Assembly (NCBI GenBank): GCA_964654825.1
Contig: CAZZKG010000003.1
Location: 26,531 to 90,530 of the forward strand
Source of the DNA: an uncultured Gemmatimonadota bacterium
GTDB lineage: Bacteria > Gemmatimonadota > CAZMKB01
Length of the DNA: 64,000 bases
Reading direction: 5' to 3'
Shown here one piece after another: positions 26,201 through 60,040 of the stretch (the stretch's first letter is position 1; each line of letters starts with the position of its first letter). Position numbers and translations under genes: made by a program. The notes beneath the pieces were generated by a model that worked only from the letters and a program-made list of their open reading frames with translations, was not told the DNA's origin and searched no databases.

Positions 26201-26238
26201 CAGTATTCTCACACACTGGTACAGATGAAATTACTGCA

Positions 26239-28815: not shown

Positions 28816-28980
28816 CCTGTTGTCCTGTCTGGGAAAGTACTCGCCTGCCGGCAAATCAGGAGCTCGGCGACGAGGGAGCCGCCGATGTTCGGCATCTCGC
28901 AATTTTGATTATCAACCCCTCCGGTACACCGCACTTCTCGTGCCGATAATATCCACCTCCGGAGGCCCTGTCAACGGGCC

Positions 28981-30204: not shown

Positions 30205-30223
30205 AAGCAGAGAGGACTGGAGT

Positions 30224-31363: not shown

Positions 31364-31366
31364 TTG

Positions 31367-37835: not shown

Positions 37836-38048
37836 GAAAAATGATTCCTCCGATGCCCCAATACCTGTGCGTGTGTTCGTTCCAAGAATATATGGATGAC
37901 GGGGGATGCGGTCAACCGCCTGGAAACGCACAATTCCGGCCAGCTTACTAAACCCCTTCAGGTAAATTGATCTGTTCATAAATACGGTGACGCATCGATG
38001 GCCTGAGACATTAGTATTTATGAACAGGGCCACTAAGTCGATAAATAG

Positions 38049-43916: not shown

Positions 43917-43932
43917 TGGCACAATAGTTGCT
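43917..43932 (+). promoter_or_regulatory. sigma-54 (-24/-12) promoter: TGGCACA-atag-TTGCT
   Basis: Exact match to the consensus TGGCACG-N4-TTGCW. GG at 43918-43919 and GC at 43930-43931. 100 bp upstream of the CDS at 44033 and immediately downstream of the NtrC-type activator gene. Confidence 0.6.
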
Positions 43933-44032
43933 CTCCGCCTAAATATAACGTGTCCTCCTGCCGGGATCTCGCTGATTTTTTCTTCTTCTCCCCGGTGGGC
44001 ATACTGAACACTTCCCATGCGGATTACATCTC

Positions 44033-44452
44033 ATGGAGAAACTCTCCCGGGCAATCCTCATCGAACCCGATGCCCTCTTCAGAGAAGCACTGAAGAAAGT
44101 TCTTGAGAGAGAAGGGTTTAAGGTTCTCGAGGCATGTTGTCTGGGTGAGGCCCTCCCCCTGATTCTCGGGTCGAACGTGTCCCTGATCACCACGGAGTTA
44201 AAACTCCCGGACTCGGAGGGACCGGAGACGATTGACCGGCTCCTCGACGTATCACCGGATTCTCAGGTGATCATCCTCACCGCCTTTCCCGAGCTGATAC
44301 CGAATGGCGGTTCTGATCGTTATTCCATTGAAAACGTTATATTTATGAGGAAACCGGTCGGTTTGAAGGATCTCCTCGAGAGAATCTCCTGTCCCCAAGC
44401 GGCGAAAACCCAGAAAATGAAAGACAAAATGTCAGGCGAAATCTCCTCATGA
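44033..44452 (+). CDS. receiver-like domain protein with non-canonical phosphorylation site (Asp->Glu)
   Basis: AILIEPDAL in place of DD. LITTELKLPDSEG in place of the LxxDxxMP phospho-acceptor Asp. Conserved T (IILTAF) and K (MRKPV). Confidence 0.5.
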   Translation: MEKLSRAILIEPDALFREALKKVLEREGFKVLEACCLGEALPLILGSNVSLITTELKLPDSEGPETIDRLLDVSPDSQVIILTAFPELIPNGGSDRYSIENVIFMRKPVGLKDLLERISCPQAAKTQKMKDKMSGEISS

Positions 44453-44628
44453 GAGTTGATTTTGCCTGAATGTCGCATCCGGAGGTTTTCTCACCTCACT
44501 TCTGTCAGACTGAAGTTGGAGTTGCTGAGGAATATCCTCCCGATCGAGAATCGCTTATGTAATAACTTGGGATATAAGTAGTTAGAGAATATACTCACAG
44601 CCTCGACAGTGTTGATTCCTGGCACGAT

Positions 44629-44644
44629 GGTTGCTTCTCTCTCA
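44629..44644 (+). promoter_or_regulatory. sigma-54 (-24/-12) promoter: TGGCACG-atgg-TTGCT
   Basis: Perfect consensus. GC at 44642-44643 lies 27 bp upstream of the ATG at 44671 of the first NHL gene. Confidence 0.65.
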
Positions 44645-44670
44645 GTGAATATCATCAAGGGGTCAACACG

Positions 44671-45618
44671 TTGATTTTCTCTGTATCTCACAGACTGATT
44701 ATTTCCGCATTTCTACTGGTTATCGGGACTGTCGGGGCGGACCTTTTTGCCGAACCTGACGTCACAGTCGAAAATGTCACCTACGGTAAGTCACAGAACC
44801 TCATCTTTCAGGCCCCGAGCAGCATCTATTATGATACCAGAAAAGCCGAGATCTATGTCACCGACTCGGGCAACGCTTCTGTTCTCATTTTTAATAGCCA
44901 GGGCAGTTTTCTCTTCAGTTTCAGACACTGGGTGAAGCGGGACGGCAGAGTGATACCCGGCGAGCCCAGAGATATCGTCGTGTCAGGACGCGGGTACATG
45001 TACCTCACCGATGCTCTCTCCCGGGAGATCGACATCATCAGCGTGAGGGGTGAGAAGATAGAGACGATCGATCCCGGAGATTACAAACCTTACCGTGACA
45101 AAGTAGTGTATCCGCAGTACATGGCGATCGACCCGGCTGACACATTGTATGTCACCATTGATGGAGATGTCAAAGAGGTCCTCGTTCTGGATCCCGAGCT
45201 GAGGTTCGTGAGATCGATCACAGGCACCGGAGGCGGATTCGGGGTCCTCACCGGGATAGCGCTCGATGAGTCGGGCAGGGTGCTGGTCACAGACATCGAA
45301 GGGCCCGAATGCGTGCAGGTTTACTCCCGGGCCGGCGAGTTTCTCTTCGGTTTCGGCGTCAAAGCAATAGGTGATGAGAATTTTTCCCATCCTCACGGTC
45401 TCGCCGTCACCTCGGAGGGAGACATCTGGGTCGTCGACTCGTTCCGGCAGGTCGTCAAAAGATTTACACGTGATGGTACGTTCAAGGAAATGGTCGGTGG
45501 GTTCGGATTCAGGCCCGGTGATCAGCAGTATCCGATCGGGATAGACTCGGATCAGAAAGACAGGATTTTTGTCGCAGAGAAAGTTGGTCGCAGGTTTCAA
45601 ATACTGCGGGCTCACTAG
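44671..45618 (+). CDS. secreted NHL-repeat (six-bladed beta-propeller) protein
   Basis: Signal peptide. Repeated blades of the form IYVTD..., LYVTIDGD, RVLVTDIEG, IWVVDSF and RIFVAEK. Confidence 0.75.
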   Translation: MIFSVSHRLIISAFLLVIGTVGADLFAEPDVTVENVTYGKSQNLIFQAPSSIYYDTRKAEIYVTDSGNASVLIFNSQGSFLFSFRHWVKRDGRVIPGEPRDIVVSGRGYMYLTDALSREIDIISVRGEKIETIDPGDYKPYRDKVVYPQYMAIDPADTLYVTIDGDVKEVLVLDPELRFVRSITGTGGGFGVLTGIALDESGRVLVTDIEGPECVQVYSRAGEFLFGFGVKAIGDENFSHPHGLAVTSEGDIWVVDSFRQVVKRFTRDGTFKEMVGGFGFRPGDQQYPIGIDSDQKDRIFVAEKVGRRFQILRAH

Positions 45619-45686
45619 TGTTCTGTCCGCAGAAAATGGACTCGGGCGGTGCCTGGGAACGTTACCACGAAAGGAGGTGAAGTAGA

Positions 45687-46721
45687 TTGAGGAGATTCAC
45701 AACTGGGGTCGTCGGAGCAGTGGCTGTACTCGCTCTTGCAAGTTTTGCCTTCGCGGGTGACTACCATCATGGTAGTACACTCAACTGCTCCGAATGTCAT
45801 GTTATGCACTACAGTCAGTCTCACGGTTATGATGGTGGTGGAGTATTCACTCCGCTGGGCCCTGACGGTCCATACGAATATCTCTTGAGAAATGAGATAA
45901 ACGACCTGTGTCTCACCTGCCACGACGGACAGACATTCGCTCCGGACGTCTTTGAAGCAGGCACGCAGGTTGGACTGGTCAGGCAAGCCGGTGCGCTGAG
46001 TGAGGTGGGTGGACCTTCGCCCTACGAGGAGACAAACGGTCACACTCTCGGGACGACGGATGCTCCTCCTGGAAATGATGCAGGCTGGACACCGGATCCG
46101 GACCAGGGTCTGACATGTACAGACTGCCATCAACCTCACGGTTACGGCGGTCCGACGGATGATCCATACAGGAACCTCAGCCCGAACTCGGGCGGCGGTT
46201 TCCACGCGTCCGTCACCTACGCTGTCGGAACGAATGATCTCGCCATGGACACCTACGAAAGGGTGAATTCAGGGTCGGATCACTATTCCTTCGACAACGT
46301 AGACTTCAACGAGCCTGATCCCACGGGGTCCGGTTACGCCGCCTGGTGTAAGACCTGTCACACACTGTTCCACGGTGACAAGGGCGGCAGCGAGGTCGGC
46401 GGTGCCACAGGCGAAGAGTGGTTGAGGCACCCTCAGGCGGATGCCGACGTCGGTGATGTCGGTGGTGGACATTCAAGCGCTGATGTTTTTGTGGCTGATG
46501 ATGTCTATCCGAAGGTGATGACCGCTACAGAGAACTGGGCACCAACTGACCCGGCTGATGTGACGGATCACACGCCATCGTGCTTCTCGTGCCACAAAGC
46601 CCACGGGAACCAGAATCCCTTCGGGCTTATCTTCCTGGGGACAACCCTCCCCATTACGGAAGAGGGCACGGGCGACGGAGTGTATGTAACACTCTGTCAA
46701 CAGTGCCACGTGCAGGGTTAG
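45687..46721 (+). CDS. multiheme c-type cytochrome (6 CxxCH)
   Basis: Signal peptide. CSECH, CLTCH, CTDCH, CKTCH, CFSCH and CQQCH motifs. Confidence 0.85.
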   Translation: MRRFTTGVVGAVAVLALASFAFAGDYHHGSTLNCSECHVMHYSQSHGYDGGGVFTPLGPDGPYEYLLRNEINDLCLTCHDGQTFAPDVFEAGTQVGLVRQAGALSEVGGPSPYEETNGHTLGTTDAPPGNDAGWTPDPDQGLTCTDCHQPHGYGGPTDDPYRNLSPNSGGGFHASVTYAVGTNDLAMDTYERVNSGSDHYSFDNVDFNEPDPTGSGYAAWCKTCHTLFHGDKGGSEVGGATGEEWLRHPQADADVGDVGGGHSSADVFVADDVYPKVMTATENWAPTDPADVTDHTPSCFSCHKAHGNQNPFGLIFLGTTLPITEEGTGDGVYVTLCQQCHVQG

Positions 46722-46737
46722 TAATCCCTGTTGATCG

Positions 46738-46775
46738 AGGGGGGTGCTGGTGGTGATCGCACCCCCTTCCTTTGT
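46738..46775 (+). terminator. stem-loop terminator after the 6-haem cytochrome gene
   Basis: GGGGGGTGC (46738-46746) pairs with GCACCCCC (46758-46765), followed by TTCCTTTGT. Confidence 0.5.
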
Positions 46776-46797
46776 AAGGATTTTTCGGACAATTTAA

Positions 46798-47715
46798 ATG
46801 ATGAGATGTATTACAATGTTTTCGCTTCTCCTCCTCCTCGTGGTGAACACGGGTGCCGAATCTCAGATACTTCACTTCTCCCTCACCGAACGGTACGCGC
46901 TCTCCACCTTCCCCGGGGAGGGTGGCTTCGGGAGGATTTCCGACGTTTCCTACAGTCTCGATCTCGACGAGATTCTGGTGGCTGATGAGGTGAGGAGGAG
47001 AATTTTCACCTTCAAATCGGACGGCACTCCCGAGCAGGCTCTGGGAGTCGCCACCGATATCCCGCCGCCGTCTGCGACGGTTCCTGGTGGGGATGGGAAG
47101 GTCTATATCGTCGAGGCCCGGACGGGCAAGCTTTTTACGCTGAATCGTGTTGAAGGAGAACAAGTTGTTCCATTTCGAATAACCGGTGAAAAAATCATGG
47201 ATGAGGTCCGTGTGAGCGGTCTGGTGAGAAGCCGGGCGGGTGTTCTTTACCTTGTTACCGATGACGGGAAACAGATCATCATGTGTGATGGGGAGGGGCA
47301 TTACCGCGGGATGAGTGACCGGGGAGTGAGGCTCGGGAGGCTCATCGCGATCGATGTCGATGACCGTGGGAGGATCATCGCCGCGACCCGTGGATTGATC
47401 CCCCTCCGACTGTTCGATGGTTCGGGTTCTTTTTTGAGGAATATCGAGATCAGGGATCTCGCGACGGATATGTCGAGATCCGAGATCGGAGGTGTCGCAT
47501 TCGATGCCCAGGGGAGGGTGTGGCTCACATACCCCGTGGATGGTCTCGTCAGGGTGTTCGATGAAACCGGAACGCTTCTGGACGAGATCGGGAGCTCGGA
47601 GATACCCGGCGGACTTTTTTCCCCGGCTGATATCGAGATCACCCCGATGGGCGATTTACTTATCCTCGAACGGGGATCGAACCGGGTACGCTGTTTCTCG
47701 ATGGAATTACAGTGA
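46798..47715 (+). CDS. secreted NHL-repeat beta-propeller protein
   Basis: Signal peptide. Blades KVYIVEARTG, VLYLVTDDG, RIIAATRG, RVWLTYPVDG and DLLILERG. Confidence 0.7.
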   Translation: MMRCITMFSLLLLLVVNTGAESQILHFSLTERYALSTFPGEGGFGRISDVSYSLDLDEILVADEVRRRIFTFKSDGTPEQALGVATDIPPPSATVPGGDGKVYIVEARTGKLFTLNRVEGEQVVPFRITGEKIMDEVRVSGLVRSRAGVLYLVTDDGKQIIMCDGEGHYRGMSDRGVRLGRLIAIDVDDRGRIIAATRGLIPLRLFDGSGSFLRNIEIRDLATDMSRSEIGGVAFDAQGRVWLTYPVDGLVRVFDETGTLLDEIGSSEIPGGLFSPADIEITPMGDLLILERGSNRVRCFSMELQ

Positions 47716-48623
47716 AAAATAAATTCTTTCCTGTTGTGATGATACCACTGCTCCTGGTCTCCGTCTTTACAGATGTCGGAGAGGGAATCGCTGAGGTGCG
47801 CCTGCAACTGAAGCCCGCGGCAATGCTCACGGCACCGGGAGCCAGGCTTTCTTCGGTCGCTTACTCCGATGTCTGGGATGAGATCTACGCCGTGGATATG
47901 CTTACCGGGGATATCCTGGTGAGCAAAATGAAATCTCTAAGGTTCGATAAGCTGGAAGTGCGAGGGGAGCTCAAAGCATACGCTCTCACCGTCGGGGATG
48001 AGGATTTTCTGTTCGTCACTGACCTCCGCGGGTCCGGCGTGACCAAGATCACACCCGCTGGGGATATCGTTACGAGAATCGATGTGGGCACGGAAGAGGC
48101 TCCCGGTACCTGTCTCGGCAGGATAAGGACAGGCCCTGAGGGCAGGATCTATGCCGTCGAGCGTTCCGGGGACAGGATTTTTATTTTTGATAACAAGCTC
48201 GAGTCCATGGAGATTGTTCACCTGGGATCCCCGTCCGACACCCTTACGGTCGTGGATCTGACATTCGGTGAAGGCGGGACGATTCTGGCTCTTTCTTCGA
48301 AAGGCCAGGTACTCCGGAAGTTCGATGGTTCTGGAACGTATCTGGGAGGGTTCGGGATCCACAGTACGGACAAGAGCGCATTCTCGCTGCCGAGTGCGAT
48401 CACAAGGGGACCTGATGGTAATCTCTGGATAGTCGACTCCTTCCAGCACACTGTAAAATTGTACTCACAGACTGGTGATTTTCTCTACGCTCTGCTCGAT
48501 ATGGCCGCGTCCGGGAAAGGTCTCTACTTCCCGGTGGACATCGTATTCATCTCGAGGGACCGGGTTGCCTTACTGGACAAGGGATCATCGAGTATAAAGT
48601 TCTTCGAGGTGGAAAGCTCCTGA
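47712..48623 (+). CDS. secreted NHL-repeat beta-propeller protein
   Basis: Overlaps the upstream stop by 4 bp. Blades IYAVDMLTGD, FLFVTDLRG, RIYAVERSGD, NLWIVDSFQH and RVALLDKG. Confidence 0.7.
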   Translation: MKNKFFPVVMIPLLLVSVFTDVGEGIAEVRLQLKPAAMLTAPGARLSSVAYSDVWDEIYAVDMLTGDILVSKMKSLRFDKLEVRGELKAYALTVGDEDFLFVTDLRGSGVTKITPAGDIVTRIDVGTEEAPGTCLGRIRTGPEGRIYAVERSGDRIFIFDNKLESMEIVHLGSPSDTLTVVDLTFGEGGTILALSSKGQVLRKFDGSGTYLGGFGIHSTDKSAFSLPSAITRGPDGNLWIVDSFQHTVKLYSQTGDFLYALLDMAASGKGLYFPVDIVFISRDRVALLDKGSSSIKFFEVESS

Positions 48624-48633
48624 CGGTGATCGT

Positions 48634-50730
48634 ATGACAGGATGGTTCGAAAGAAAAAGCGTTTATTTCGGCCTGGTACTCGTTCTTTCGGCGGGGAACC
48701 TGACCGCCGATGAACATCATGACAGTAATGAGATTCCATGCTCCGACTGTCACACCATGCATTACGGTGACGTCACGTTCGACAGAGAACCGCTGCGCCC
48801 AGGAGGTCCTTTCGAGCACCTCCTGCTGGCGCCGGAGGACGAACTCTGCCTCAGTTGCCACGATGGTACAGATCCCTCCGCTCCGAACGTTGTCTCAGGA
48901 GAAGGGGCGGAGTTGTCCGGAGGGTGGTTCACGCTGGGATCCGGTTCTGATGAGAACGGACATACACTGGGAAGCCGCGAGCTTCCACCGGGGTCGACAC
49001 GCGACCGAGTCGATACGCGATTGCGATGCATCTCCTGCCACGATCCGCACGGGAATAAATATTACCGGAATCTACGCCCGGCTCCCGGGGGAGGGGAAGG
49101 ACCCGGCCTGACATCCGGGAGAGAAACAGCCGGATCGAGTAACACGAGCGTGCTGATGCTGGATGCCTCGGGTGCCTCTAGGTATGCCCCGGAGAGTGTA
49201 CGGTTTCATGGATCGTTACAGACGGGTCAGGGCGCGCACATTTCTGCATGGTGCGGGGGCTGTCACACCATGATGCACGGCGATGGAGGAGATCCGGAAA
49301 TGGGTGGTTCGTTGTACGGGCACCGGGAAGCGAAGACTGTCTGGCTGCAGCATCCGGTAAAAGGTATCCCGATGTCTCTCTCCGTCAAAAACGGACACGA
49401 TGAGAACAGGGGCTGGTTCGAAGATTACGCTTCGAGACTCTCGGTTGCTTCTTCGGGAGAAGTCCCGGGCACTCCGGCTGCGAGCGACAACGAGATTACA
49501 TGCCTCACCTGCCACGCCGCCCACGGCAGCGGTTTTCGTTTCTCCCTCATTTACGACGACGCCGAAACAGTGCTCGAAAGAGACGGTCGGCGATTGAGTC
49601 AGAGCTGCCGGCAGTGCCACCGGTTCGGTCACGAGCCGTTTGAACACACTCTTCACGGTGATCCTGAGAACGGCGTCCAGAGGACAGGTTCACCCGACGA
49701 GCGGGGTGAGTGCAGTCAATGTCACATTATGCATGGCGCGGTCGAGAGCGGTGTTACAGGCGGTGAGGCGTTCCCCTATCTCCTCTTTACCGAAAACGGC
49801 AACAATCTCTGCTACGGAGGAGGCGATGCCGGAGGATGTCACCGTGACAGGCCGTTCAATTATCCGGCGCGGGAAAGCGATCGAATGCCGGAGTATGCGG
49901 ATAATCCCGGTTACTTCGAGTTCAACAACGGCGCCGTTCGCATTCCCGGGGTCAACAAACGCAACCGCTGGCCCGGAGAGCAGGCCTACGAGAACCCTCT
50001 GACGTACAAAGGCGGGAAGTTGTTCTCCCCGCACGCATTCGATCAGGACATGCCGATAGTGGATGAATCCGGACAGGGGGCCTGCCGGAACTGCCACGAT
50101 CCTCACGAGGGTGATGGATCACATGATCTTCTGGTGATGGAATACGGTCCGGTGAGCGGTGCCGGTGAAATCAAAGCCCCGGCAGCGTACGATCTCTGCC
50201 TGGGCTGTCATTCGTTCGAGGGGCCGGTGGGTATGGACATCGAGAACAAATGGATCCGTGACTACTATGATTCATCGATCAACGAGGATCTGACCACCGG
50301 CCACCAGATACGCTTCAATCCCCGTGTAGCCCTGTCATGGCCGAGCAACGTGGAGCTGGGGGACAAGTTGCCATGTTATGACTGTCACAACCCCCACGGT
50401 TCCTGGGGAAATGATGGAACGAATCCGAACGGTTATCTGATCAGCGATGAGAGGCCGGATTGGAGCGGCCTGACCGACACTCTGGATGATCCAGGACAGT
50501 CACGGAGATTCTGCCTCGGCTGCCACATCTCCTCTGATGGCGAAGCGGGTTCACGGTCAGTGGAAGGCATTATCATGAATACGATTTCGAGTCGAAAAGG
50601 CCACTTGTCCTCATCCGGGGCGTCGTGTCATACCTGTCATGGTGGTGATTATTCGACCTCCAACTCATTCAATGTGCATCACCCGGCTGGAGGTGCGGTT
50701 GCCATCGAGAAGGAAAAACAGATCCGTTAG
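48634..50730 (+). CDS. multiheme c-type cytochrome (12 CxxCH)
   Basis: Signal peptide. Twelve CxxCH motifs. The N-terminal CSDCHTMHYG...LCLSCHDG module is shared with the 6-haem and 7-haem cytochromes. Confidence 0.85.
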   Translation: MTGWFERKSVYFGLVLVLSAGNLTADEHHDSNEIPCSDCHTMHYGDVTFDREPLRPGGPFEHLLLAPEDELCLSCHDGTDPSAPNVVSGEGAELSGGWFTLGSGSDENGHTLGSRELPPGSTRDRVDTRLRCISCHDPHGNKYYRNLRPAPGGGEGPGLTSGRETAGSSNTSVLMLDASGASRYAPESVRFHGSLQTGQGAHISAWCGGCHTMMHGDGGDPEMGGSLYGHREAKTVWLQHPVKGIPMSLSVKNGHDENRGWFEDYASRLSVASSGEVPGTPAASDNEITCLTCHAAHGSGFRFSLIYDDAETVLERDGRRLSQSCRQCHRFGHEPFEHTLHGDPENGVQRTGSPDERGECSQCHIMHGAVESGVTGGEAFPYLLFTENGNNLCYGGGDAGGCHRDRPFNYPARESDRMPEYADNPGYFEFNNGAVRIPGVNKRNRWPGEQAYENPLTYKGGKLFSPHAFDQDMPIVDESGQGACRNCHDPHEGDGSHDLLVMEYGPVSGAGEIKAPAAYDLCLGCHSFEGPVGMDIENKWIRDYYDSSINEDLTTGHQIRFNPRVALSWPSNVELGDKLPCYDCHNPHGSWGNDGTNPNGYLISDERPDWSGLTDTLDDPGQSRRFCLGCHISSDGEAGSRSVEGIIMNTISSRKGHLSSSGASCHTCHGGDYSTSNSFNVHHPAGGAVAIEKEKQIR

Positions 50731-52360
50731 TACCGGGATCTGCCTGCTCTTCGCTCTGATCGCGGGATCGGGAGTATTAGGAAGAGCGAGCGGGCAGGCG
50801 AGATTGGGAGGAAGATTGAACCTGTTTTATCAGGAATCGAGGCTGGGAGACCTGTACTCCAGGAATTCCAACCAGAATCTGGATCTAACGATCTACGATG
50901 ATCTCTTTGCGAAGAACATGATTTCCCTGTCATATCTCATGGAACGAAAAACAGGATCCTCCCAGCCGCAGGATTTCCTGAGGCACAGGATCAGATCGAC
51001 CATCACCGGCAGAGCCTTCGTCTTTACTTCCGAGTATTCACCCCCTCACACGCTGAGGGGGACAATCGGGGAAACTTCTCAGAAATCGGACAGGAAGAGA
51101 TTCCTTCTGGGAGTGAATCCCGAGGATTACCCGGTATTCTCACTCTCCTACGACCGATCCGACCGCCACGGCGGAGCCGGCAATTTCAGAGTGGATTCTG
51201 TGAACGAGAACTCACTCGCTGCGACCAGTTATGACTACCGATTTGCCGGCGCACGCGCGACGTTCAGGGAGAGGAAGACCACCAACCACCTGGACACGGG
51301 TCTCAACCGAAGATTGAGTGAAGGCACCGGCGGCGTGACACTGGAAAGCAGGCTTGGCCCAATCGGGAGTTTCATGGCCAGCTATGACGGTCTGCTCTCA
51401 AAGGAAAAATTTGGGGGGAGGGACAGGGCCCGCGTGAGAATCGACAATGTGCGGGGACTCTTCTCTTCGAATCCTGCCAGGTGGCTCACTCTCTCGGCCA
51501 ACTTCCTCGGGTCAATCATTGACAGGGAAAACGAGACCGCCAACAGGACTCTATCGCAGGAGCTCTATACCGCGGCAACGTATCAGCCGAGGGAATACCT
51601 TCAGTTCCAGTTTGCGAGAGACATCAGGGAAACAGAAGAAGACGGCACGACGACACTCTCGGATTATGCGAGGGCCCAGAGTACGATTCAGGGTTATCTG
51701 AGGGACGGCATCCGGGGCAGAGCGTCGATCCAGAGGACATTCGTCATCAAAAGTGAAGAGGGAGCATTTCCGTCGAACGGTTATTTTTTCAACCTGGACA
51801 CCGACTTGATGCCCGGAGCGATACTGGCATTCGATCTCAATGTGACGAAGAGCGAGAATCCCAATGCACAGATCGGCACCTACCAGGTCAGAAAAGTGGT
51901 TGATCTGAGAGGCTTCCCGAGATCCGACCTGTCGATCAATTTCGCGTACCGGACCCTCCAGTTCGGCAACTCTCTCGATCTGCTCGGTTCGAAGACGTAC
52001 GATGTCGAATTAGATCTGAACTACCGGCCGAAACCGAGATTTTCAACAATTCTCACCCTCACCCGGAGCGTCGACAGGCGTGTGCTCGGTGGAGCGGGGT
52101 TGTTTCTGAGCTCCACGACGACATATTCACTGGCCGGTGGAAGTCACCTGAGCTTCATTTACATCCGCCGCGATGTGAGCGGTGCTATTATCCAGACTCC
52201 CGGCGTCAGTGCGCAGGGTACCTATCCCAATAACTATCTCCTCGAACTGGTGATCCTGATGGCACGGCAGACGAGGCTCAGCGTGAAATATGATATCAGG
52301 GATCTCTCCCAGGGCAGCATCAGCACCGTGCTGGGAATAACTTTCATCAAGAGGTTTTAA
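50672..52360 (+). CDS. putative outer-membrane beta-barrel protein (candidate porin partner of the cytochromes)
   Basis: Positively charged n-region followed by a hydrophobic signal segment (TGICLLFALIAGSGVLG). Alternating-polarity strands throughout. C-terminal ...GITFIKRF ending in aromatic Phe. Start uncertain. Overlaps the upstream cytochrome 3' end. Confidence 0.45.
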   Translation: MCITRLEVRLPSRRKNRSVSTGICLLFALIAGSGVLGRASGQARLGGRLNLFYQESRLGDLYSRNSNQNLDLTIYDDLFAKNMISLSYLMERKTGSSQPQDFLRHRIRSTITGRAFVFTSEYSPPHTLRGTIGETSQKSDRKRFLLGVNPEDYPVFSLSYDRSDRHGGAGNFRVDSVNENSLAATSYDYRFAGARATFRERKTTNHLDTGLNRRLSEGTGGVTLESRLGPIGSFMASYDGLLSKEKFGGRDRARVRIDNVRGLFSSNPARWLTLSANFLGSIIDRENETANRTLSQELYTAATYQPREYLQFQFARDIRETEEDGTTTLSDYARAQSTIQGYLRDGIRGRASIQRTFVIKSEEGAFPSNGYFFNLDTDLMPGAILAFDLNVTKSENPNAQIGTYQVRKVVDLRGFPRSDLSINFAYRTLQFGNSLDLLGSKTYDVELDLNYRPKPRFSTILTLTRSVDRRVLGGAGLFLSSTTTYSLAGGSHLSFIYIRRDVSGAIIQTPGVSAQGTYPNNYLLELVILMARQTRLSVKYDIRDLSQGSISTVLGITFIKRF

Positions 52361-52959
52361 TGGAGAGAATATTTTCGAAAATCGATTTGAGAGGCCTGAA
52401 AGTTGCAGTTTTTCTTGTACTTATCCTGTCAGTACAGCAGTGTGGAGGTCCCCGGAGGTTCGTGCACCCCGAGGCCGATGTCTCGTACTACGAGCGGCTT
52501 GGCCTGCTGTCGTTCGAGAACCTCGCCACTGACCGGGTCGCAGGTGAAAAAGTCACCAACGCGTTCCTCACGGAACTGTTGATCTCGAAGCGGTTCGAGG
52601 TCGTGGAGCCAGGCAGGGTCAACAGGGCCTCGAGAGAGCTCGGGCTTCCTTCTCCACTCATAGGCGGCGAGCTCACGCCCGAGGAGGTCAAGGAACTGGG
52701 TGAGCAACTCGGGGTCGAGGCGCTTTTGAGGGGTGTGGTTCGTGAATATGAGATGGTACGCATCGGGCAGACACAGTACCCGCTGGTCACCCTCGACATC
52801 GAATTGCTGGACGTAGCGACCGGGACCACCGTCTGGGTTATCAGTCATACGAAAAAGGGAGGTCCCAACCTGCCCTTCGTCAGTGTTGGAGAAACGTTCA
52901 CCCTTGGAGAACTGTTGCAGGAAATATGTCACGATATCGTATCGAAAATCCCGAAATAA
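52360..52959 (+). CDS. lipoprotein, LpoB/TolB-N-like fold (putative)
   Basis: Signal peptide with Cys (LSVQQCGG). Pattern LLSFENLATD...FEVVEP...LG..LGVEALLRGVVREYE resembles the LpoB/CsgG/TolB-N fold family. Paralogous to the next gene. Confidence 0.4.
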   Translation: MERIFSKIDLRGLKVAVFLVLILSVQQCGGPRRFVHPEADVSYYERLGLLSFENLATDRVAGEKVTNAFLTELLISKRFEVVEPGRVNRASRELGLPSPLIGGELTPEEVKELGEQLGVEALLRGVVREYEMVRIGQTQYPLVTLDIELLDVATGTTVWVISHTKKGGPNLPFVSVGETFTLGELLQEICHDIVSKIPK

Positions 52960-53555
52960 GACGAATCAGGTACCCGATCCTGATCTTCGCGCTCCTCTTG
53001 TTGATCTGTTCCGGTTGCGGACCGACACCGCGGACTTACCTGAACGATGATATCAATACACTTCAGGGGTACCGTGTAGCGCTCTTGCCACTCGACAACC
53101 TTAGTGGAGTGGACGGTGCCACCGAGAAGATCGATGAGCTTCTTCTCGTCGAGCTGCTGAGGACCGGCTCTTTCCAGGTCATCGAACCCGGGGAAGTCGA
53201 AAGGGTGCTCCTGGAACTGAGGATCCGGAGGACCTCCGAGCTTTCTCTGGAAGATATGACTGCGGTCTCCCAGCGGTTGAATGCGGATGCTCTCCTTGTG
53301 GGGTCGGTGCTCGAATACGGTAGAAAAGAATCGAGATCAATCGGCGGTGGACAGGTCCCCAGTATCACCATTGTACTCAGACTGGTGGATGTCAAAAACG
53401 GACAGGTCCGGTGGGCGTCCTCACACTCGAGGACCGGTGATGATGCGGAAAAGGTGTTTGGGATCGGGAGGATCAGGGATCACAGCAGACTCAGTAGAGA
53501 GATCGTCAAAGAGATGCTCGAATCATTAGAGCTGACAGTATCGGCACAGAAATGA
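52926..53555 (+). CDS. lipoprotein, LpoB/TolB-N-like fold (paralog)
   Basis: Lipobox-like LLICSGCG. VALLPLDNLSG...FQVIEPGEV...ADALLVGSVLEYG parallels the previous protein. Confidence 0.4.
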   Translation: MSRYRIENPEIRRIRYPILIFALLLLICSGCGPTPRTYLNDDINTLQGYRVALLPLDNLSGVDGATEKIDELLLVELLRTGSFQVIEPGEVERVLLELRIRRTSELSLEDMTAVSQRLNADALLVGSVLEYGRKESRSIGGGQVPSITIVLRLVDVKNGQVRWASSHSRTGDDAEKVFGIGRIRDHSRLSREIVKEMLESLELTVSAQK

Positions 53556-54022
53556 GGGTTGTTACTATGTCCAGGTTCGTGATGATTGTTTTCCTTCTCT
53601 GTTTGACAACAATGACGGGGTATTCGGATGTGCTGAGTGAAGAGACACCCCCCGCTGACCCCGGGTCGATTACCCTTCTGGCGAAGCACCGGCTCTACCC
53701 CGATTTTTCCGAACAACACACCGTCGCCATGAACCAGAGATTCGCCATATCCGATGAGGGGTACGAAGCGGTCATCACCAGGTATCTCCCTGATTTCGCC
53801 ATCCAGATCACCGATGAGGGGAAGAAGATATTCTCCAAATCGACAGAGGCCAACAATCCGGCATTCTGGATCGTCGTGTACAAGGACAGTGCGGCGGTAG
53901 ACAGTGTGTGGGCGTTTTCTGTCAGGGGAGCGCCTCATTTTTCGAGGAATTCATTCATATATTTCGAGATCCTCGAGTTCGATTCAGGGGACACCTCTGG
54001 TGAAACGGAGGAGGGGCAATGA
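53552..54022 (+). CDS. small secreted hypothetical protein
   Basis: Signal peptide. No recognised domain. Its 4-bp overlaps with both neighbours suggest translational coupling. Confidence 0.4.
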   Translation: MRVVTMSRFVMIVFLLCLTTMTGYSDVLSEETPPADPGSITLLAKHRLYPDFSEQHTVAMNQRFAISDEGYEAVITRYLPDFAIQITDEGKKIFSKSTEANNPAFWIVVYKDSAAVDSVWAFSVRGAPHFSRNSFIYFEILEFDSGDTSGETEEGQ

Positions 54023-57000
54023 GGAGAACGGGTTTCATTTTTGCAGTCATATTCTTCTCTCTCGCAGTTCTGATTCTTGCAGGGTCTCTCGAGGGCCGTA
54101 AAAAATGTTATGACTGTCACAAAGAAAAGAAGAGTGAGTTTCTGTCGCATCCGAACGTCCACAAACCCGTGAAGAATGAGGACTGCGAAGATTGCCATCG
54201 AAGGCACGGTTTCGCCCAGACCCTTCTGCTCAAACGTGAGGGCAGGGCGTTGTGCACGGAGTGCCATCCGGGCATCGAAGATGAATTGAGCAAGAATGTG
54301 ATACACGATCCGCTCGAGACCGGCCAGTGCAATGCATGTCATGATCCCCATGCCTCTGACGCGGATGCTCTCGTCCGAAGTGAGGATATCGCCGGTCTCT
54401 GTTTTACGTGCCATACCGAACTCGGATCGCCACCCGAGGGTAGCCGGATCCACAAACCCTTCGAGGAAGGTCGGTGCATGGATTGTCATCAACCACATTC
54501 CTCCGATGCCGAAGGACTGCTGGTCCAGGATGAGCCACAGCTCTGCTACGGCTGTCACGAAGAGGAGAAGATACTTAAAAAACAAGGCCACTCTATTCTC
54601 GCGGCCGGGATCGCCACCTGTACCGATTGTCACTCTCCTCATTTCTCACCGGTTAAATCATTGATCGACACTCACGCCCACGAGCCGTTCCGTAATTCGG
54701 AATGCGATATATGTCATATCGAAGAGGGAGGAAAATTCTCTTCCGAACTCGTGGAGGAAGTCCCCGGCCTCTGTATGATGTGTCACGATACCATCTCGGA
54801 GAAGATCGGACTGGCCGTACCTCATGCTCCGGTCGCATCAGGTGAATGTCTCATGTGCCATAATCCGCACAGGAGTGACAGAGAGAAGCTGCTCACCGAC
54901 AACCAGAAGATGCTCTGTGCAGAATGTCATGAAGAGGCTGCCGGGAGAGGAGGCGCACAATCGGTACACGATCCTTTCGAGACGGGCAATTGTACCGGAT
55001 GCCACGATCCTCACGGCTCCGACAACCAGGCTCTTCTCGATACATCCGGCAGGGAACTCTGTTCCACGTGTCATGCCGACCTTGTGGAGAAGCTGGATTC
55101 GGCACCACACAGTCATCCGCCGGCATCGGATCCGGGTTGTGAACACTGTCACCAACCGCATGACTCGAAGATGAAGCACCTTCTCACCGATTATCCAAAA
55201 AACCTCTGTTTCGAGTGTCACGAAGATGCGAGAGCTCAGGGGAGATTTTCCCTTCAGCATGTGCCCTTCGACGGGGGTGATTGTGGGGCATGTCACGAGC
55301 CTCACGCCTCCGAACAGGACGTTATGCTCAGACGGTCTCCCGAGGAATTATGCATCACGTGCCACGCCGACATAGCGGCAAGGGTGAATGCGACTCATCC
55401 ACATCCTCCTGTGATGGAAGGGGCCTGCCTGAGCTGTCATGTCCCTCATGCCGCTCAGGGTGATGAGCTTCTCGTCTCGGGCCAGAGTGAGATATGCGGC
55501 ACCTGTCATGACATGGGGCTGGAAGGAATAAGCCACGTTCATGGGGCGCTCGAGGAAGGGAAGTGCAGCGGCTGTCATGATCCTCACGGCGGTGAAACAG
55601 AGCATTTCCTGAAAGCCGAGGGGAAAGAGCTGTGTTACAGCTGTCACTCCGAATTCCGGAAAAAGGAAGAGGACCCAATCGTACATCAACCGGTGAAAGA
55701 CGGGGAGTGTAATAAATGTCATCTTCCTCACGGTTCTACGGTGAAATGGAATCTTGTTGATGAGGTCTCAGCCCTGTGCGGCAACTGCCATGATTTGAGC
55801 GACGAAGGAGCCGGGATGGCACACAGGGATCTGGATATGGAATCCTCCACCTGTACATCCTGTCATGATCCCCACAGTTCCGAGAAGGAGGGGCTTATTG
55901 CAAGGAATGTTCACGAACCATTCGAATCCGGTGTGTGTGAAGCCTGCCACGAATTCGACCCTGCTACGGGTCAGGCCGCGCTCACCGATGATCAGGTCGA
56001 GATCTGCACTGACTGTCACGAAGACATCCTCACCGGCACTCATATCCACAACGCAATCGAAGATGTCGGTTGTACGGCTTGCCACAGCCCACACGCTTCA
56101 TCGAGGGATTTCCTCCTGATCGACAACAGAAATTCCATATGCATAGAGTGCCATCCCGATCACTCGGCAGATCAGGAGTTCACATCGAGTCATCCCATGA
56201 TCACCCGCGGTGAGTGTGAGACATGTCACGTACCTCATTCCGCAGACAATAACAAATTACTCGTGTCGAATCAGCCGGGTCTCTGTTTCGAATGCCACGC
56301 GAGTGTCGAAGCTGATAAGAACTACAACATGCATGCCCCGTTCGCCGGAGGTATGTGCACGGATTGTCACAGTCCGCACACCTCTCAATCAGTGAAACTT
56401 CTGACTAATGACGTTCCCGGTCTCTGCCTGTCATGTCATGGAGGAGATATCCCTGGCCTCAGGAGAAAACACGGCGGTCACCATGTCGATGGGGGCAACT
56501 GCGCAGTGTGTCATGATGCTCACTGGACTCCGCCCGGTTCACAGTCGCTACTCTATCCGGTGGTTCATGAACCTCTCAATTCCGGATGTGACGTGTGTCA
56601 TCCGAGGGGTATCCTCGCCGGGACGGAGAAGCCGGAAGACCTGTGCCTCGGCTGCCATGACAGAATCGTAGAAGATACCGACAGATACGTGCATCAGGCT
56701 TTGCAGAAGAGAGGGGGGTGCACGAACTGCCATAATCCACACCGGGGGTACGGGAAGGAATTACTGAAAAAGGAAGGTGATGATATCTGCTTCACCTGCC
56801 ACGATGAAAAAAGTAAAACCGGAAGAAGAGTTGTACATGAACCAGTTCCTGACGGATGTCTCAATTGTCATTCAGCACACAGTGCGGGTGAAGAGTTCCT
56901 GCTCCCGTCGCCTGTGAACGAGCTCTGTGGTACCTGCCACGAGGCGGAGCTCCAGATGCACAGCCATCCGTCGGGAGGGAGTGCGAAGGATCCGAGGACC

Positions 57001-57126
57001 GGGGAAGCGCTCACCTGTGCGAGCTGTCATGACGCTCACTCGAGTGATGTGCAGACCCTGCTCCGTGCTGATCCGAAAAAGGAGCTGTGTCTGGGATGTC
57101 ACTACCTGGATAAAAATTTTCAGTAA
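54019..57126 (+). CDS. giant multiheme c-type cytochrome (~42 CxxCH in 1035 aa; c7/c3-like tandem di-haem repeats)
   Basis: Signal anchor. I count 42 CxxCH motifs. Most sit in repeating units of the form C..CH.PH.S......L....LC..CH, about one haem per 25 aa. Confidence 0.9.
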   Translation: MRRTGFIFAVIFFSLAVLILAGSLEGRKKCYDCHKEKKSEFLSHPNVHKPVKNEDCEDCHRRHGFAQTLLLKREGRALCTECHPGIEDELSKNVIHDPLETGQCNACHDPHASDADALVRSEDIAGLCFTCHTELGSPPEGSRIHKPFEEGRCMDCHQPHSSDAEGLLVQDEPQLCYGCHEEEKILKKQGHSILAAGIATCTDCHSPHFSPVKSLIDTHAHEPFRNSECDICHIEEGGKFSSELVEEVPGLCMMCHDTISEKIGLAVPHAPVASGECLMCHNPHRSDREKLLTDNQKMLCAECHEEAAGRGGAQSVHDPFETGNCTGCHDPHGSDNQALLDTSGRELCSTCHADLVEKLDSAPHSHPPASDPGCEHCHQPHDSKMKHLLTDYPKNLCFECHEDARAQGRFSLQHVPFDGGDCGACHEPHASEQDVMLRRSPEELCITCHADIAARVNATHPHPPVMEGACLSCHVPHAAQGDELLVSGQSEICGTCHDMGLEGISHVHGALEEGKCSGCHDPHGGETEHFLKAEGKELCYSCHSEFRKKEEDPIVHQPVKDGECNKCHLPHGSTVKWNLVDEVSALCGNCHDLSDEGAGMAHRDLDMESSTCTSCHDPHSSEKEGLIARNVHEPFESGVCEACHEFDPATGQAALTDDQVEICTDCHEDILTGTHIHNAIEDVGCTACHSPHASSRDFLLIDNRNSICIECHPDHSADQEFTSSHPMITRGECETCHVPHSADNNKLLVSNQPGLCFECHASVEADKNYNMHAPFAGGMCTDCHSPHTSQSVKLLTNDVPGLCLSCHGGDIPGLRRKHGGHHVDGGNCAVCHDAHWTPPGSQSLLYPVVHEPLNSGCDVCHPRGILAGTEKPEDLCLGCHDRIVEDTDRYVHQALQKRGGCTNCHNPHRGYGKELLKKEGDDICFTCHDEKSKTGRRVVHEPVPDGCLNCHSAHSAGEEFLLPSPVNELCGTCHEAELQMHSHPSGGSAKDPRTGEALTCASCHDAHSSDVQTLLRADPKKELCLGCHYLDKNFQ

Positions 57127-57184
57127 ACCGTTCTATCAGAGGAAAGAGTTTAACGAAACAGGGGGAGTAAGGAGAGAAGTCTGG

Positions 57185-58360
57185 ATGAACATCAAGAAAA
57201 CTAGTATTTTCGCGGGTGTCACTGTCCTGCTGCTCGTGATCTCGCTGCCGGTGATGCTCCTGGCGCAGAGAAGCCGGGATTCGTTCAGGGGGGCGAAGAT
57301 TCACATCGGAGGGGTCAATCCCGACCTCCGGGCTCCCAATCTGCTGCCGCCCGGTGAGGGGCCGTATCACAACGGTGAGACCCTCGTCTGCACCGATTGC
57401 CACGTCATGCACGCCAGCATGCAGCATAATTACGCCGGCGGCACCGGGCCAGAGGGTGGAGTCGACGGGTTTCCATGGGAACCTGATCCCGCACCCACAC
57501 TGCTCAAAGCGCCTGATCCGCTCGATCTCTGTCTGGTGTGTCACGACGGAGTGACGGGGATTCCCGATGTCGTCGGGGAGGATGTCAATGGCCTTGTTCA
57601 GCGTGCCGGTGGATTTTTCGATGAACCCGAAGTCGAAACACCGAACGGACATGACCTCGGCAGAGATCTGCCGGATGGCTGGGAGTTCTGTATGCGATGC
57701 CACTGGGGTGATCCCGAGGACCAGAAAGTGACCTGTATCGACTGTCACAACCCTCACGGAAACGGGAACCCGCGCAACCTCCAGTGGGCGTCTGATCCCG
57801 ATGCGACACCTCCGGTCGGCCTGTTTGTCGATCCTGCAGCGGGTGATATGGACAGGTATGAAAGGTCGAGGGTGTCATACGGTACACTCAACTCGGAATC
57901 ACTGAGGGAAGTCACAAACATCTGCCTGGACTGTCACCACATATTTTCGGGAGGTACATACATCGATCCCGACGGTGATGGGATCCATTCCAGACACCCG
58001 ACATACGACAGTGAGCGAAGTTCGCCCAACAATATCCAGCAGGGTGAGGCCCGGGGCTCGACCAATCCTGATCACTGGGAAGACGGATCTGGATCCGGTT
58101 TCGACGGTACAGAGAGAGTGAAGTTCGTAGTCAGCGGGGCATCCGACTATGATGCTGCCCTCGTTGTCGACGCGTCGACGAACGGTGTGTTCTGTCTGTC
58201 GTGCCATTACGTGCACGGTTCGACCGAACCGTTCGCGCTCACCTGGCCGATCGAGGATGTGGTGAACTATGTCGGTTGTGACCAGTGTCACTACCTCGCT
58301 CAGGTTGATGAGATTCCGTTGAGCGGAGTTGTCAACAGGAGAGGATTTCAGACTCGATAA
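57185..58360 (+). CDS. multiheme c-type cytochrome (7 CxxCH)
   Basis: GGAGAG RBS. Signal peptide (MNIKKTSIFAGVTVLLLVISLPVMLLA). Seven CxxCH motifs. N-terminal CTDCHVMHAS...LCLVCHDG module shared with the 6- and 12-haem proteins. Confidence 0.85.
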   Translation: MNIKKTSIFAGVTVLLLVISLPVMLLAQRSRDSFRGAKIHIGGVNPDLRAPNLLPPGEGPYHNGETLVCTDCHVMHASMQHNYAGGTGPEGGVDGFPWEPDPAPTLLKAPDPLDLCLVCHDGVTGIPDVVGEDVNGLVQRAGGFFDEPEVETPNGHDLGRDLPDGWEFCMRCHWGDPEDQKVTCIDCHNPHGNGNPRNLQWASDPDATPPVGLFVDPAAGDMDRYERSRVSYGTLNSESLREVTNICLDCHHIFSGGTYIDPDGDGIHSRHPTYDSERSSPNNIQQGEARGSTNPDHWEDGSGSGFDGTERVKFVVSGASDYDAALVVDASTNGVFCLSCHYVHGSTEPFALTWPIEDVVNYVGCDQCHYLAQVDEIPLSGVVNRRGFQTR

Positions 58361-58531
58361 CTCGAGAAAAATCTGCCGGAAATCCGCATCCATCTGCCGA
58401 AGAAGGATGATATTGCGGAGAGTTGGGAAGGAGGATATATTTAGGGCGATTTTGGCTTAAGTGTAATTCATGGGTAGGGAGGCGTGCTTCACTCTCTCTC
58501 TAAACACGCACTCTTCACCGTGGGAGGTAGT

Positions 58532-59077
58532 ATGAAGAAGAGTCTACTTGTTTTCCTGGCAGCGGGATTTGTCGCTGCTATGTTTCTCTCTCAAAGTGTC
58601 GCCAGCGCAGCCCAGTACGTCGGTACGAAAAAATGCAGGATGTGTCACATGTCCAAATCCAAGGGTGCTCAGTTTTCCGTCTGGGAGGGAAGCCGGCATG
58701 CCGGTGCATATCAGACCCTGACCTCGGATAAAGCGAAAGAAATCTACGCGAAAGCGGTTCCCGATGGTACCGGGAATCCGGCGGAATCGGATGAGTGTCT
58801 CGCATGTCACTCGACGGGATTCGGGAAGGCCGCGGAGCTCTTCGCGGGCACATTCGACAAGACCGAAGGGGTTGGTTGCGAAGCATGTCATGGACCCGGG
58901 AGTGATTATCAGAAGATGATCGTCATGAAAGACAAGGAGAAAGCGGTCGCGGCGGGGTTGAATATTCCGACCGAAGAAACCTGCAAGGGATGTCACAACG
59001 AAAAGAGCCCGACTTACAAGGAATTCGCGTTCGACACGTATTTTGCAAAGATCGCGCACCCGATTCCTGCGAAATAA
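58532..59077 (+). CDS. tetrahaem c-type cytochrome (periplasmic, c554/c3-like)
   Basis: GGGAGG RBS. Signal peptide. CRMCH, CLACH, CEACH and CKGCH motifs. Confidence 0.8.
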   Translation: MKKSLLVFLAAGFVAAMFLSQSVASAAQYVGTKKCRMCHMSKSKGAQFSVWEGSRHAGAYQTLTSDKAKEIYAKAVPDGTGNPAESDECLACHSTGFGKAAELFAGTFDKTEGVGCEACHGPGSDYQKMIVMKDKEKAVAAGLNIPTEETCKGCHNEKSPTYKEFAFDTYFAKIAHPIPAK

Positions 59078-59109
59078 CGTCATAGAGAAGTTGTCATCCA
59101 GACGAGAAA

Positions 59110-59142
59110 GCCCTTCACCGGTTCAGTGAGGGGCTTTTTTCA
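59110..59142. terminator. bidirectional rho-independent terminator between the cytochrome gene (+) and mobB (-)
   Basis: AAGCCCTTCAC pairs with GTGAGGGGCTT around a 7-nt loop, followed by TTTTTT. Confidence 0.6.
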
Positions 59143-59177
59143 GTTGTGCGCCCGGCAGTGCGTGCTTGCCGGGAGTT

Positions 59178-59858: not shown

Positions 59859-60040
59859 AGGATATCCTCCCGTGATATAAATATACGTTCGTTTCTCTCA
59901 ATTTCAACAGGATTGGGATAATGGGCAAGGAGTGTAGTAAGTACAACTCTAAGATAAAGAGAAACACCTCCACTGCTGTTGAACGTCTTGACACTCATCC
60001 GGCGGCGGGCTAGTTTAATCTCAGCAGGAGTCCGGTATAC

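Follow-up and report, generated by a model that had tools for sequence, protein, structure and literature searches.

The osc cluster of Geobacter sulfurreducens comprises GSU2494-GSU2504 (Shen et al., 2025, Cell Chem Biol 32:239). As quoted from that work in a 2026 paper, it includes oscC (GSU2501), oscI (GSU2495), and oscJ (GSU2494), and roles were assigned to OscH in folding, to OscE, OscF, and OscG in secretion, and to OscD in morphology. The Geobacter operon is described as holding OmcS, OmcT, and OscC. Minimal OmcE clusters of the Desulfuromonadia were reported to combine the tetrahaem OmcE and a large barrel with two multihaem cytochromes and two beta-propeller lipoproteins, and large beta-barrel genes were found in most OmcE and OmcS regions (bioRxiv 10.1101/2025.10.22.684050). 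The NHL propellers of Desulfovibrio ferrophilus were proposed to stabilise an outer-membrane cytochrome complex. OmcS-like genes in Krumholzibacteria were flagged earlier by marker-gene screening. Here, we analyzed a 64-kb stretch of DNA from an uncultured bacterium (contig CAZZKG010000003.1), called the window throughout, which carries a cluster of 13 co-directional + strand genes at 44033-59077. Five multihaem cytochromes (named cyt6, cyt12, cyt42, cyt7, and cyt4 after their CxxCH counts), three NHL-repeat propellers (NHL1 to NHL3), a beta-barrel, two lipoproteins (lipoA and lipoB), a small secreted protein, and a stand-alone receiver are encoded. The cluster is probably a divergent member of the OmcS/osc type of extracellular electron-transfer systems.

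The connection to OmcS became visible with cyt6 (45687-46721, + strand), a hexahaem cytochrome of the OmcS superfamily with ~320 amino acids in its mature form and a candidate filament subunit. The OmcS sequence used as query was identical to PDB entry 6ef8_A at 407 of 407 residues. By BLASTP cyt6 matched 6ef8 with an E-value of 2e-8 and colinear haems 1-5; it is ~25% identical to OmcS and ~85 residues shorter. Searching the whole PDB with a profile of the cyt6 family (117 sequences) yielded OmcS as the sole match (E 7.6e-11), and OmcE was not matched. The hhalign comparison of this family with 118 OmcS homologues gave 99.9% (E 2.4e-35) and covered OmcS residues 1-407. Six CxxCH motifs and the histidines H27, H41, H119, H151, H248, and H306 were invariant in the 117-sequence alignment, with cyt7 and the N-terminal half of cyt12 included. 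In the local alignment H27, H41, H119, H151, and H248 of cyt6 are paired with OmcS H2, H16, H110, H146, and H257, while H306 corresponds to OmcS H335 by motif (CHKAH versus CHRAH) and stands one column off in the printed local alignment. In the 6ef8 structure, His16 of OmcS reportedly ligates haem 5 of the neighbouring subunit. Six colinear CxxCH motifs, a bis-histidine set including the equivalent of OmcS His16, and the OmcS fold were all found for cyt6. At E <= 1e-3 the protein has 902 homologues, from metagenome-assembled genomes (MAGs) labelled Glassbacteria, Zixibacteria, Eisenbacteria, Krumholzibacteria, Acidobacteriota, and Armatimonadota.

Further OmcS-like proteins are encoded in the cluster. 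The N-terminal 333 residues of cyt12 (48634-50730, + strand, 12 CxxCH) and the heptahaem cyt7 (57185-58360, + strand), which carries an N-terminal extension, are paralogues of cyt6 (BLASTP, 5e-36 and 3e-27). The C-terminal half of cyt12 is 54% identical to a separate hexahaem gene product of 386 amino acids, encoded before the barrel in the related locus L085, and in hhalign comparisons of its family, the cyt6 family scored 98.0% and the OmcS family 95.8%. As both halves are OmcS-like, cyt12 is regarded as a fusion of two OmcS-like modules, and these alignments reveal four predicted OmcS-like haem modules in the cluster, namely cyt6, cyt7, and both halves of cyt12. Cyt7 is 47% identical to a 7-haem protein of L085 and keeps the six invariant distal histidines. 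Its phmmer matches in the PDB were weak, with OmcE of D. soudanensis (9yuq, E 0.0027) and OmcE of G. sulfurreducens (7tfs, E 0.056). By inspection, the outer cytochromes carry leaders of the signal-peptidase-I type, without the lipobox typical of MtrC and OmcB. A CX8CH motif (CYGGGDAGGCH, residues 393-403, window 49810-49842) was observed in cyt12 at the position of the haem-2 CxxCH of the second module. It holds the only two cysteines of cyt12 outside CxxCH motifs, recurs as CX8CH in the orthologues of L001, L002, and L085 and as CX7CH in L087, and may constitute a non-canonical 13th haem site.

For the comparison with osc, 78 OmcS loci with 10-kb flanks (L005-L082) were collected from species-representative genomes using OmcS as query. 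G. sulfurreducens itself was not among these loci (best 67% identity), and the canonical cluster was represented by Geomonas/Citrifermentans genomes and MAGs. We are aware of the fact that the Osc letters used here are deductions, made from the numbering of the locus tags and from the roles that another paper quotes. Gene by gene and in order, the cluster turned out to be homologous to OmcS loci of Desulfuromonadota, Nitrospirota, Myxococcota, and others. In L045 the genes encode, one after the other, an NtrC-type sigma-54 activator, an NHL-like propeller, OmcS, an OmcS paralogue, a YncE-like propeller, a protein of 746 amino acids ending in Phe and lacking Pfam matches, an LpoB/GNA1162/CsgG-like lipoprotein, a second lipoprotein, an isomerase of the SurA/PPIC type, and a giant cytochrome. 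This type of order and these domain types fit the roles reported for OscD, OscE, OscF, OscG, OscH, and OscI. About 48 of the loci carry a haem-free protein of 730-770 amino acids, mostly ending in F, L, Y, or I, directly upstream of the lipoprotein pair. Homology between the window and the OmcS loci was found for the cytochrome, the barrel, both lipoproteins, the giant cytochrome, and NHL1. The cluster has a barrel in the OscE position, lipoproteins in the OscF and OscG positions, and a giant cytochrome in the OscI position; OscH and OscD are missing. This indicates that barrel, lipoprotein pair, giant cytochrome, and a propeller next to the subunit would be the shared osc components, with OscH and OscD apparently dispensable.

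The barrel gene (50672-52360, + strand) encodes 562 amino acids with the C-terminus ...KRF. Its structure model shows 28 strands (pLDDT 89), in agreement with the earlier note on this DNA, made from the sequence alone, which had proposed an outer-membrane barrel. Word-indexed homologue searches, whether started from the single sequence or from a profile of 4 sequences, yielded just 3-4 close relatives; three close homologues are 58-63% identical, one of them labelled Candidatus Glassbacteria (phylum Candidatus Glassiibacteriota). When 1.84 billion representative proteins were scanned exhaustively with HMMER, 72 relatives were obtained, all of the short form, with ~510-590 amino acids for the full-length ones. 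No match was obtained by a profile search against the PDB, and tblastn with the barrel and the small secreted protein found nothing in the 78 OmcS loci. A first hhalign comparison with the long-form proteins, using 4 sequences, was suggestive (77.6%). With a 52-sequence barrel alignment against 44 OscE-position proteins, 98.8% was reached over 522 columns (E 1.3e-16), versus 0.7% for the control. By this alignment, the barrel is a predicted short-form homologue of the OscE-position proteins of ~750 amino acids found in OmcS loci; at ~560 amino acids it is ~190 residues shorter. The long-form barrels of the OmcS loci (L005-L082, e.g., L045 10555-12795) have extra internal ~150-200 residues that are absent from the barrel of the window.

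Directly downstream of the barrel gene, lipoA (52360-52959, + strand, OscF position, LpoB/CsgG/GNA1162 fold, Pfam LpoB 1.4e-6) and lipoB (52926-53555, + strand, OscG position, CsgG/LpoB fold, Pfam CsgG 2.8e-12) are encoded. They are paralogous, as had been proposed (BLASTP, 1e-20), and were classified as lipoproteins by inspection, each having a Cys just after the N-terminal hydrophobic stretch. By tblastn, both were matched in 55 of the 78 OmcS loci with E-values down to 6e-24, and the matches directly follow the barrel gene. The lipoprotein in the OscG position of L045 (13417-14610, 397 amino acids) matches lipoB twice, with residues 42-185 and 228-391, which suggests that its LpoB/CsgG-like domain is duplicated in tandem. 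The giant cytochrome cyt42 (54019-57126, + strand, OscI position) consists of MtrA/DmsE-like di-haem repeats, with Pfam Paired_CXXCH_1 in 20 stretches, and reached 454 bits with the DmsE family model TIGR03508 (cut-off 192.2) in 10 stretches. It is a roughly fourfold-longer relative and not an orthologue. By tblastn, cyt42 was matched in 34 of the 78 OmcS loci, at best with 32% identity over 1135 aligned columns (E 6e-170). Exactly 42 CxxCH motifs were counted in the giant cytochromes of three divergent short-form clusters, in the window, in L085 (15881-19009), and in L087 (6628-9801). This recurrence suggests that the haem number is under constraint. In the OmcS locus L056 (12409-15810), two adjacent open reading frames hold 26 and 16, i.e., 42 CxxCH.

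NHL1 (44671-45618, + strand, Pfam NHL 1.2e-19) is a secreted NHL-repeat beta-propeller, which was matched by tblastn in 21 of the 78 OmcS loci. In several annotated loci the match lies directly upstream of omcS, and in L056 it adjoins the giant cytochrome; the pair of NHL and hexahaem genes was also observed in L083-L087. Two secreted paralogues, NHL2 (46798-47715, + strand, Pfam NHL 7.7e-8, BLASTP matches to NHL1 and NHL3) and the NHL/Vgb-lyase-like NHL3 (47712-48623, + strand, assigned by Pfam, BLASTP 3e-10 to NHL2), follow cyt6. The small secreted protein of 156 amino acids (53552-54022, + strand) has an unassigned fold and matched neither Pfam nor NCBIfam. It fills the slot of the OscH prolyl isomerase, reached only 0.3% against the OscH-like family in hhalign, and is by this comparison a protein apparently unrelated to OscH. 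In the short-form clusters it sits between the lipoprotein pair and the 42-haem cytochrome wherever examined (window, L001, L002, L085, and L087). Its family shares a conserved secreted domain of ~110 residues (HRlxPDF...LPDFAI...NPA..I.VY....WAF...PH), with members at L001 10236-10703, L002 12776-13255, L085 15294-15836, and L087 6140-6631. The last gene of the unit encodes cyt4 (58484-59077, + strand), a c554-like tetrahaem cytochrome (Pfam Cytochrome_C554 3.1e-18) kept in L001, L002, and L004 and presumed to be a soluble periplasmic carrier; cyt42 is presumed to be a periplasm-spanning wire.

The neighbourhood is conserved, as the earlier note had anticipated. Four loci, from a Glassbacteria MAG and three metagenome contigs (L001-L004), share the genes of the cluster and their order up to where each contig ends: kinase, NtrC, receiver, NHL, 6-haem cytochrome, two further NHL proteins, 12-haem cytochrome, barrel, two lipoproteins, small protein, a cytochrome of ~1040 amino acids, a cytochrome of ~390 amino acids, and the c554-like protein. 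All 15 genes are present in L002; L001, L003, and L004 end at a contig edge. A simpler form was found in L085, a 258-kb metagenome contig with an adjoining sigma-54 two-component pair, and in L087, a Krumholzibacteria MAG, in the order NHL, hexahaem cytochrome, second hexahaem cytochrome, barrel of ~540 amino acids, two lipoproteins, a protein of ~165 amino acids, and 42-haem cytochrome. L084 (Acidobacteriota) has a cyt6-type cytochrome together with a long-form barrel (6e-75 to the OscE-position profile), lipoproteins, prolyl isomerase, NHL, YncE-like propeller, and 25+16-haem cytochromes. Combining a cyt6-type cytochrome with the full long-form Osc set, it bridges the short and the long forms. 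In L086, an Armatimonadota MAG, three tandem cyt6-family genes stand with NHL and c554-like genes (2218-16467), and genes for ResB/CcsA cytochrome maturation, a GNA1162-like lipoprotein, and a short-form barrel homologue (3e-13) adjoin them.

Open reading frame listing and translation bore out the genes, order, and coordinates of the earlier note essentially as given, all on the + strand. The roughly 71 CxxCH motifs it had claimed were counted as exactly 71 (6, 12, 42, 7, and 4), and no other open reading frame of the 64-kb window holds more than one. Tight packing was found as described, with 4-bp overlaps at four junctions and further overlaps of 1, 34, and 59 bp. The assignments to NHL, LpoB/CsgG, Paired_CXXCH, c554, histidine kinase, and NtrC were upheld by Pfam. 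By inspection, every structural product starts with a hydrophobic, signal-peptide-like stretch. An Rfam scan of the window gave no match.

Upstream of the cluster a PAS sensor histidine kinase (39845-42505, + strand; Pfam PAS_4/PAS/PAS_9 three times, HisKA, and HATPase_c) is encoded, with the same gene upstream in L002 and L003. It is followed by an NtrC-type regulator of REC-AAA+-HTH architecture (42502-43893, + strand; Pfam Sigma54_activat 2.6e-67, Response_reg, and AAA_lid_14), whose position is kept in L001-L003. Using the -24/-12 consensus TGGCAC-N5-TTGCW, exactly two perfect matches were found on either strand of the window. Both are intergenic on the + strand, one directly upstream of the receiver gene (43917-43932, TGGCACAATAGTTGCT), the other 36 bp upstream of NHL1 (44620-44635, TGGCACGATGGTTGCT). 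The counterparts of the 43917 site have 1 mismatch in L001 (575) and in L002/L003 (3175); those of the 44620 site are exact in L001 (1275) and have 1 mismatch in L002/L003 (3858). With two exact consensus sites kept with at most one mismatch in relatives, the proposed sigma-54 control of the cluster is likely. We presume that the 44620 site is the promoter of the structural operon, and that the NtrC-type regulator activates both promoters. Among the OmcS loci, an NtrC-type sigma-54 activator adjoins L045, and five have exact promoter matches; the one of L062 immediately precedes the NHL gene, and those of the remaining loci lie 0.4-1.3 kb before omcS. The stand-alone receiver (44033-44452, + strand, Pfam Response_reg 4.7e-12) aligns with Glu at the phospho-acceptor position (TTELKLP), versus LTDLRMP and ISDMKME in the two NtrC receivers of the window. 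The Thr and Lys signature residues are retained, and the D-to-E change is conserved in the orthologues of L001 and L002. This makes the protein a probable pseudo-receiver that cannot be phosphorylated and that has a sigma-54 promoter of its own.

A GC-rich hairpin followed by a T-run (59151-59173, + strand; 8 pairs, 6 of them GC) lies between the convergent genes of cyt4 and mobB. It is the first-listed terminator-like site of the region and the richest in G-C pairs, and likely marks the end of the operon. The gene mobB (MobB, molybdopterin-guanine dinucleotide synthesis; 59178-59858, - strand) converges on the operon end, as in the Glassbacteria MAG contig L001. Two + strand open reading frames overlapping mobB (59146-59526 and 59533-59880) are probably spurious. 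Of the two NtrC systems between which the earlier note had placed the cluster, both are present, and only the upstream PAS kinase/NtrC pair belongs to the unit. The downstream histidine kinase/NtrC pair (60041-62564) was rejected as a member: it is parted from the cluster by mobB and is absent after cyt4 in L001, L002, and L004, where the following genes differ (mobB or a NapC-like gene).

Elsewhere in the window, a set of cell-surface polysaccharide type is encoded at 24206-34722, with a beta-helix/NosD-like protein, a sulfotransferase, three GT4 glycosyltransferases, and a GHL15-like hydrolase. It lies ~9 kb upstream of the first operon promoter; unrelated genes stand in between, and its transferases are encoded on the opposite strand. 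In Geobacter, OmcE clusters are reported to be followed by glycosylation genes (bioRxiv 10.1101/2025.10.22.684050). A protein of 1078 amino acids with a receiver and a PPDK_N (pyruvate phosphate dikinase ATP-binding) domain, an unusual architecture, is encoded at 34797-38033 (- strand).

As a member of the OmcS/osc type, the system might work in the following way. The PAS kinase would sense a redox or substrate signal, and NtrC would activate the sigma-54 promoters. All products would be exported by Sec, with the cytochromes loaded with haem. Cyt42 would span the periplasm as a haem wire leading to the 28-strand barrel, aided by the c554-like tetrahaem carrier. The barrel and the two lipoproteins would export and/or anchor the OmcS-like cytochromes at the cell surface, where cyt6, and possibly cyt7 and cyt12, would polymerise head-to-tail, with the conserved His41, the equivalent of OmcS His16, ligating haem 5 of the neighbouring subunit. 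The extracellular haem chain would exchange electrons with minerals or partner cells; whether electrons are exported or taken up is not readable from the sequence. The NHL propellers might serve as periplasmic or surface scaffolds or as chaperones.

The C-terminal module of cyt12 is always encoded directly before the barrel, in L085 and L087 by a gene of its own. Cyt12 could be a dedicated base or adaptor, with its C-terminal module docking in or on the 28-strand barrel and taking electrons from the 42-haem wire, its N-terminal module nucleating the polymerisation of cyt6, and cyt7 serving as tip or terminator. This idea is speculative and, in our view, doubtful. If true, the compact variant without prolyl isomerase would be a full parts list of a filament (initiator, shaft, cap, anchor, and periplasmic feed), and it would address how filaments are initiated, anchored, and terminated, a question stated as open in the field.

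Several observations weigh against the assignment to the OmcS/osc type. We infer the polymerisation of cyt6 from its conserved ligands and its fold alone, and OmcS paralogues such as OmcT and OscC, which keep the same features, are not known to form filaments. Single-sequence phmmer searches of the PDB with cyt6 and cyt12 returned noise only and missed OmcS, so that the family profile was needed, and the cyt6 model had no counterpart in the PDB by Foldseek. No rotamase domain was found by Pfam in the cluster products, and an OscH-like query gave E 0.74 by tblastn on the window; the YncE-like protein of L045, corresponding to the OscD of ~480 amino acids, gave E 0.1. Both OscH and OscD have functions assigned to them in Geobacter. 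Reviews call the role of OscE, OscF, and OscG as a secretion channel speculative, and it is disputed in the literature what OmcS filaments do physiologically.

The cluster could alternatively be a porin-cytochrome conduit of the Mtr/Pcc/PCC3 type that forms no filament. An MtrA/DmsE-like segment of cyt42 would thread the barrel and feed OmcS-like monomers or small complexes held at the surface by the NHL propellers. The scores of cyt42 above the curated cut-off for DmsE/MtrA decahaem proteins speak for such a conduit, as do the description of PCC3 with periplasm-spanning multihaem cytochromes and porins, and the stabilising role proposed for the D. ferrophilus propellers. However, the outer cytochromes belong to the OmcS superfamily with the inter-subunit histidine conserved, and their leaders differ from those of MtrC and OmcB as outlined above. 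We consider this alternative unlikely, and it is compatible with an OmcS/osc-type filament, as the barrel could both sheath cyt42 and anchor the filament. A nanowire cluster of the OmcE rather than the OmcS type is very improbable. The weak cyt7 matches to OmcE and the similar composition of the published minimal OmcE cluster would agree with it, but the profile search of the cyt6 family found OmcS and not OmcE, the subunits have six or seven haems instead of four, cyt7 is a clear cyt6 paralogue, and direct matches to the companion genes were obtained in OmcS loci, the loci which the comparison covered.

Hardly any credence is left for a periplasmic redox system of the nitrite or hydroxylamine reductase type with soluble partners and no relation to the outer membrane. 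This reading was rejected: the catalytic CxxCK motif occurs in no product, all Nrf-type matches were far below the curated cut-offs or had E > 0.1, OmcS is the sole significant structural relative, and a 28-strand outer-membrane barrel and lipoproteins lie within the operon. What resemblance there is consists of weak, sub-threshold similarity to NrfA, NrfB, and NrfH models and to cytochrome c nitrite reductase structures, and of the c554 domain of cyt4. The cytochromes are also by the measure of the earlier note no ordinary nitrite reductases, with NrfB and NrfH below the cut-off and no significant similarity to solved nitrite reductases, nor hydroxylamine oxidoreductases, of which no model or structure was matched, although cyt4 does carry a c554 domain. 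An OmcS/osc-type system is the reading we prefer.

The proposal of an envelope-spanning multihaem electron-transfer module is supported by these data. Novelty, the other part of the earlier claim, did not hold. The combination of NHL proteins, an LpoB pair, and sigma-54 control had been thought to be part of no described architecture, but homologous OmcS/osc loci exist, with NtrC in L045 and sigma-54 sites in five loci, and clusters of NHL or other propellers with multihaem cytochromes, mostly with a barrel, were already described for osc, OmcE, Uet, and D. ferrophilus. As judged by homology, the cluster is a real, conserved putative extracellular electron-transfer cluster and not a new kind of conduit, i.e., a compact, divergent version of OmcS/osc. 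The tandem OmcS fusion, the CX8CH site, the small protein in place of the prolyl isomerase, and the conserved count of 42 haems look unreported. The OmcS/osc nanowire-type system is thereby extended to uncultivated candidate phyla, with a Glassbacteria-labelled relative and Krumholzibacteria, which argues that these candidate phyla may perform mineral- or partner-linked extracellular electron exchange. A stripped-down variant is defined by a short barrel, the lack of prolyl isomerase and YncE-like propeller, and a conserved 42-haem periplasmic cytochrome. Since it is self-contained in a single sigma-54 operon and smaller, it may serve as a useful minimal set for the heterologous reconstitution of cytochrome filaments.

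Comparing the cluster with the known systems, clear differences and similarities became visible. As in MtrCAB, Pcc, and PCC3, a large barrel stands beside an MtrA/DmsE-like periplasmic multihaem cytochrome, here cyt42, and to this extent the resemblance to Mtr/Pcc claimed earlier is justified. It does not extend further: unlike in MtrCAB, Pcc, and PCC3, the barrel has 28 predicted strands and showed no signature of the MtrB/PioB/OmbB families in Pfam or in the PDB profile search, the periplasmic cytochrome has 42 haems, and the outer cytochromes are OmcS-like. Only sub-threshold or marginal matches to MtrC/MtrF domains were found when cluster products were searched for a surface lipoprotein cytochrome of the MtrC/OmcA/OmcB type. 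The Uet system of Candidatus Tenderia electrophaga and Gallionella by description serves extracellular electron exchange and likewise unites a barrel outer-membrane protein, multihaem cytochromes, and NHL-repeat proteins in one operon, and differs in its undecahaem UetJ, trihaem c7-type cytochromes, cupredoxin, and prolyl isomerase. In D. ferrophilus, multihaem cytochromes are by description interleaved with NHL-repeat beta-propellers in DFE_448-451 and DFE_461-465, however, neither a barrel nor a lipoprotein pair was reported there. With the minimal OmcE clusters the window shares cytochromes, propellers, a filament subunit, and a large barrel thought to secrete or anchor the filament; the subunit is hexahaem and OmcS-like instead of tetrahaem, and the OmcE companions are likened by description. 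Three NHL propellers, the small conserved protein, the fused double-OmcS 12-haem protein, the c554-like tetrahaem cytochrome, and the candidate-phylum host, whose closest MAG is labelled Candidatus Glassbacteria, set the cluster apart from osc. Like osc, it unites several OmcS-like paralogues in a single operon, places a propeller gene directly before an OmcS-like gene, and has a large haem-free barrel followed by two lipoproteins of the LpoB/CsgG/GNA1162 fold and then by a giant multihaem cytochrome.

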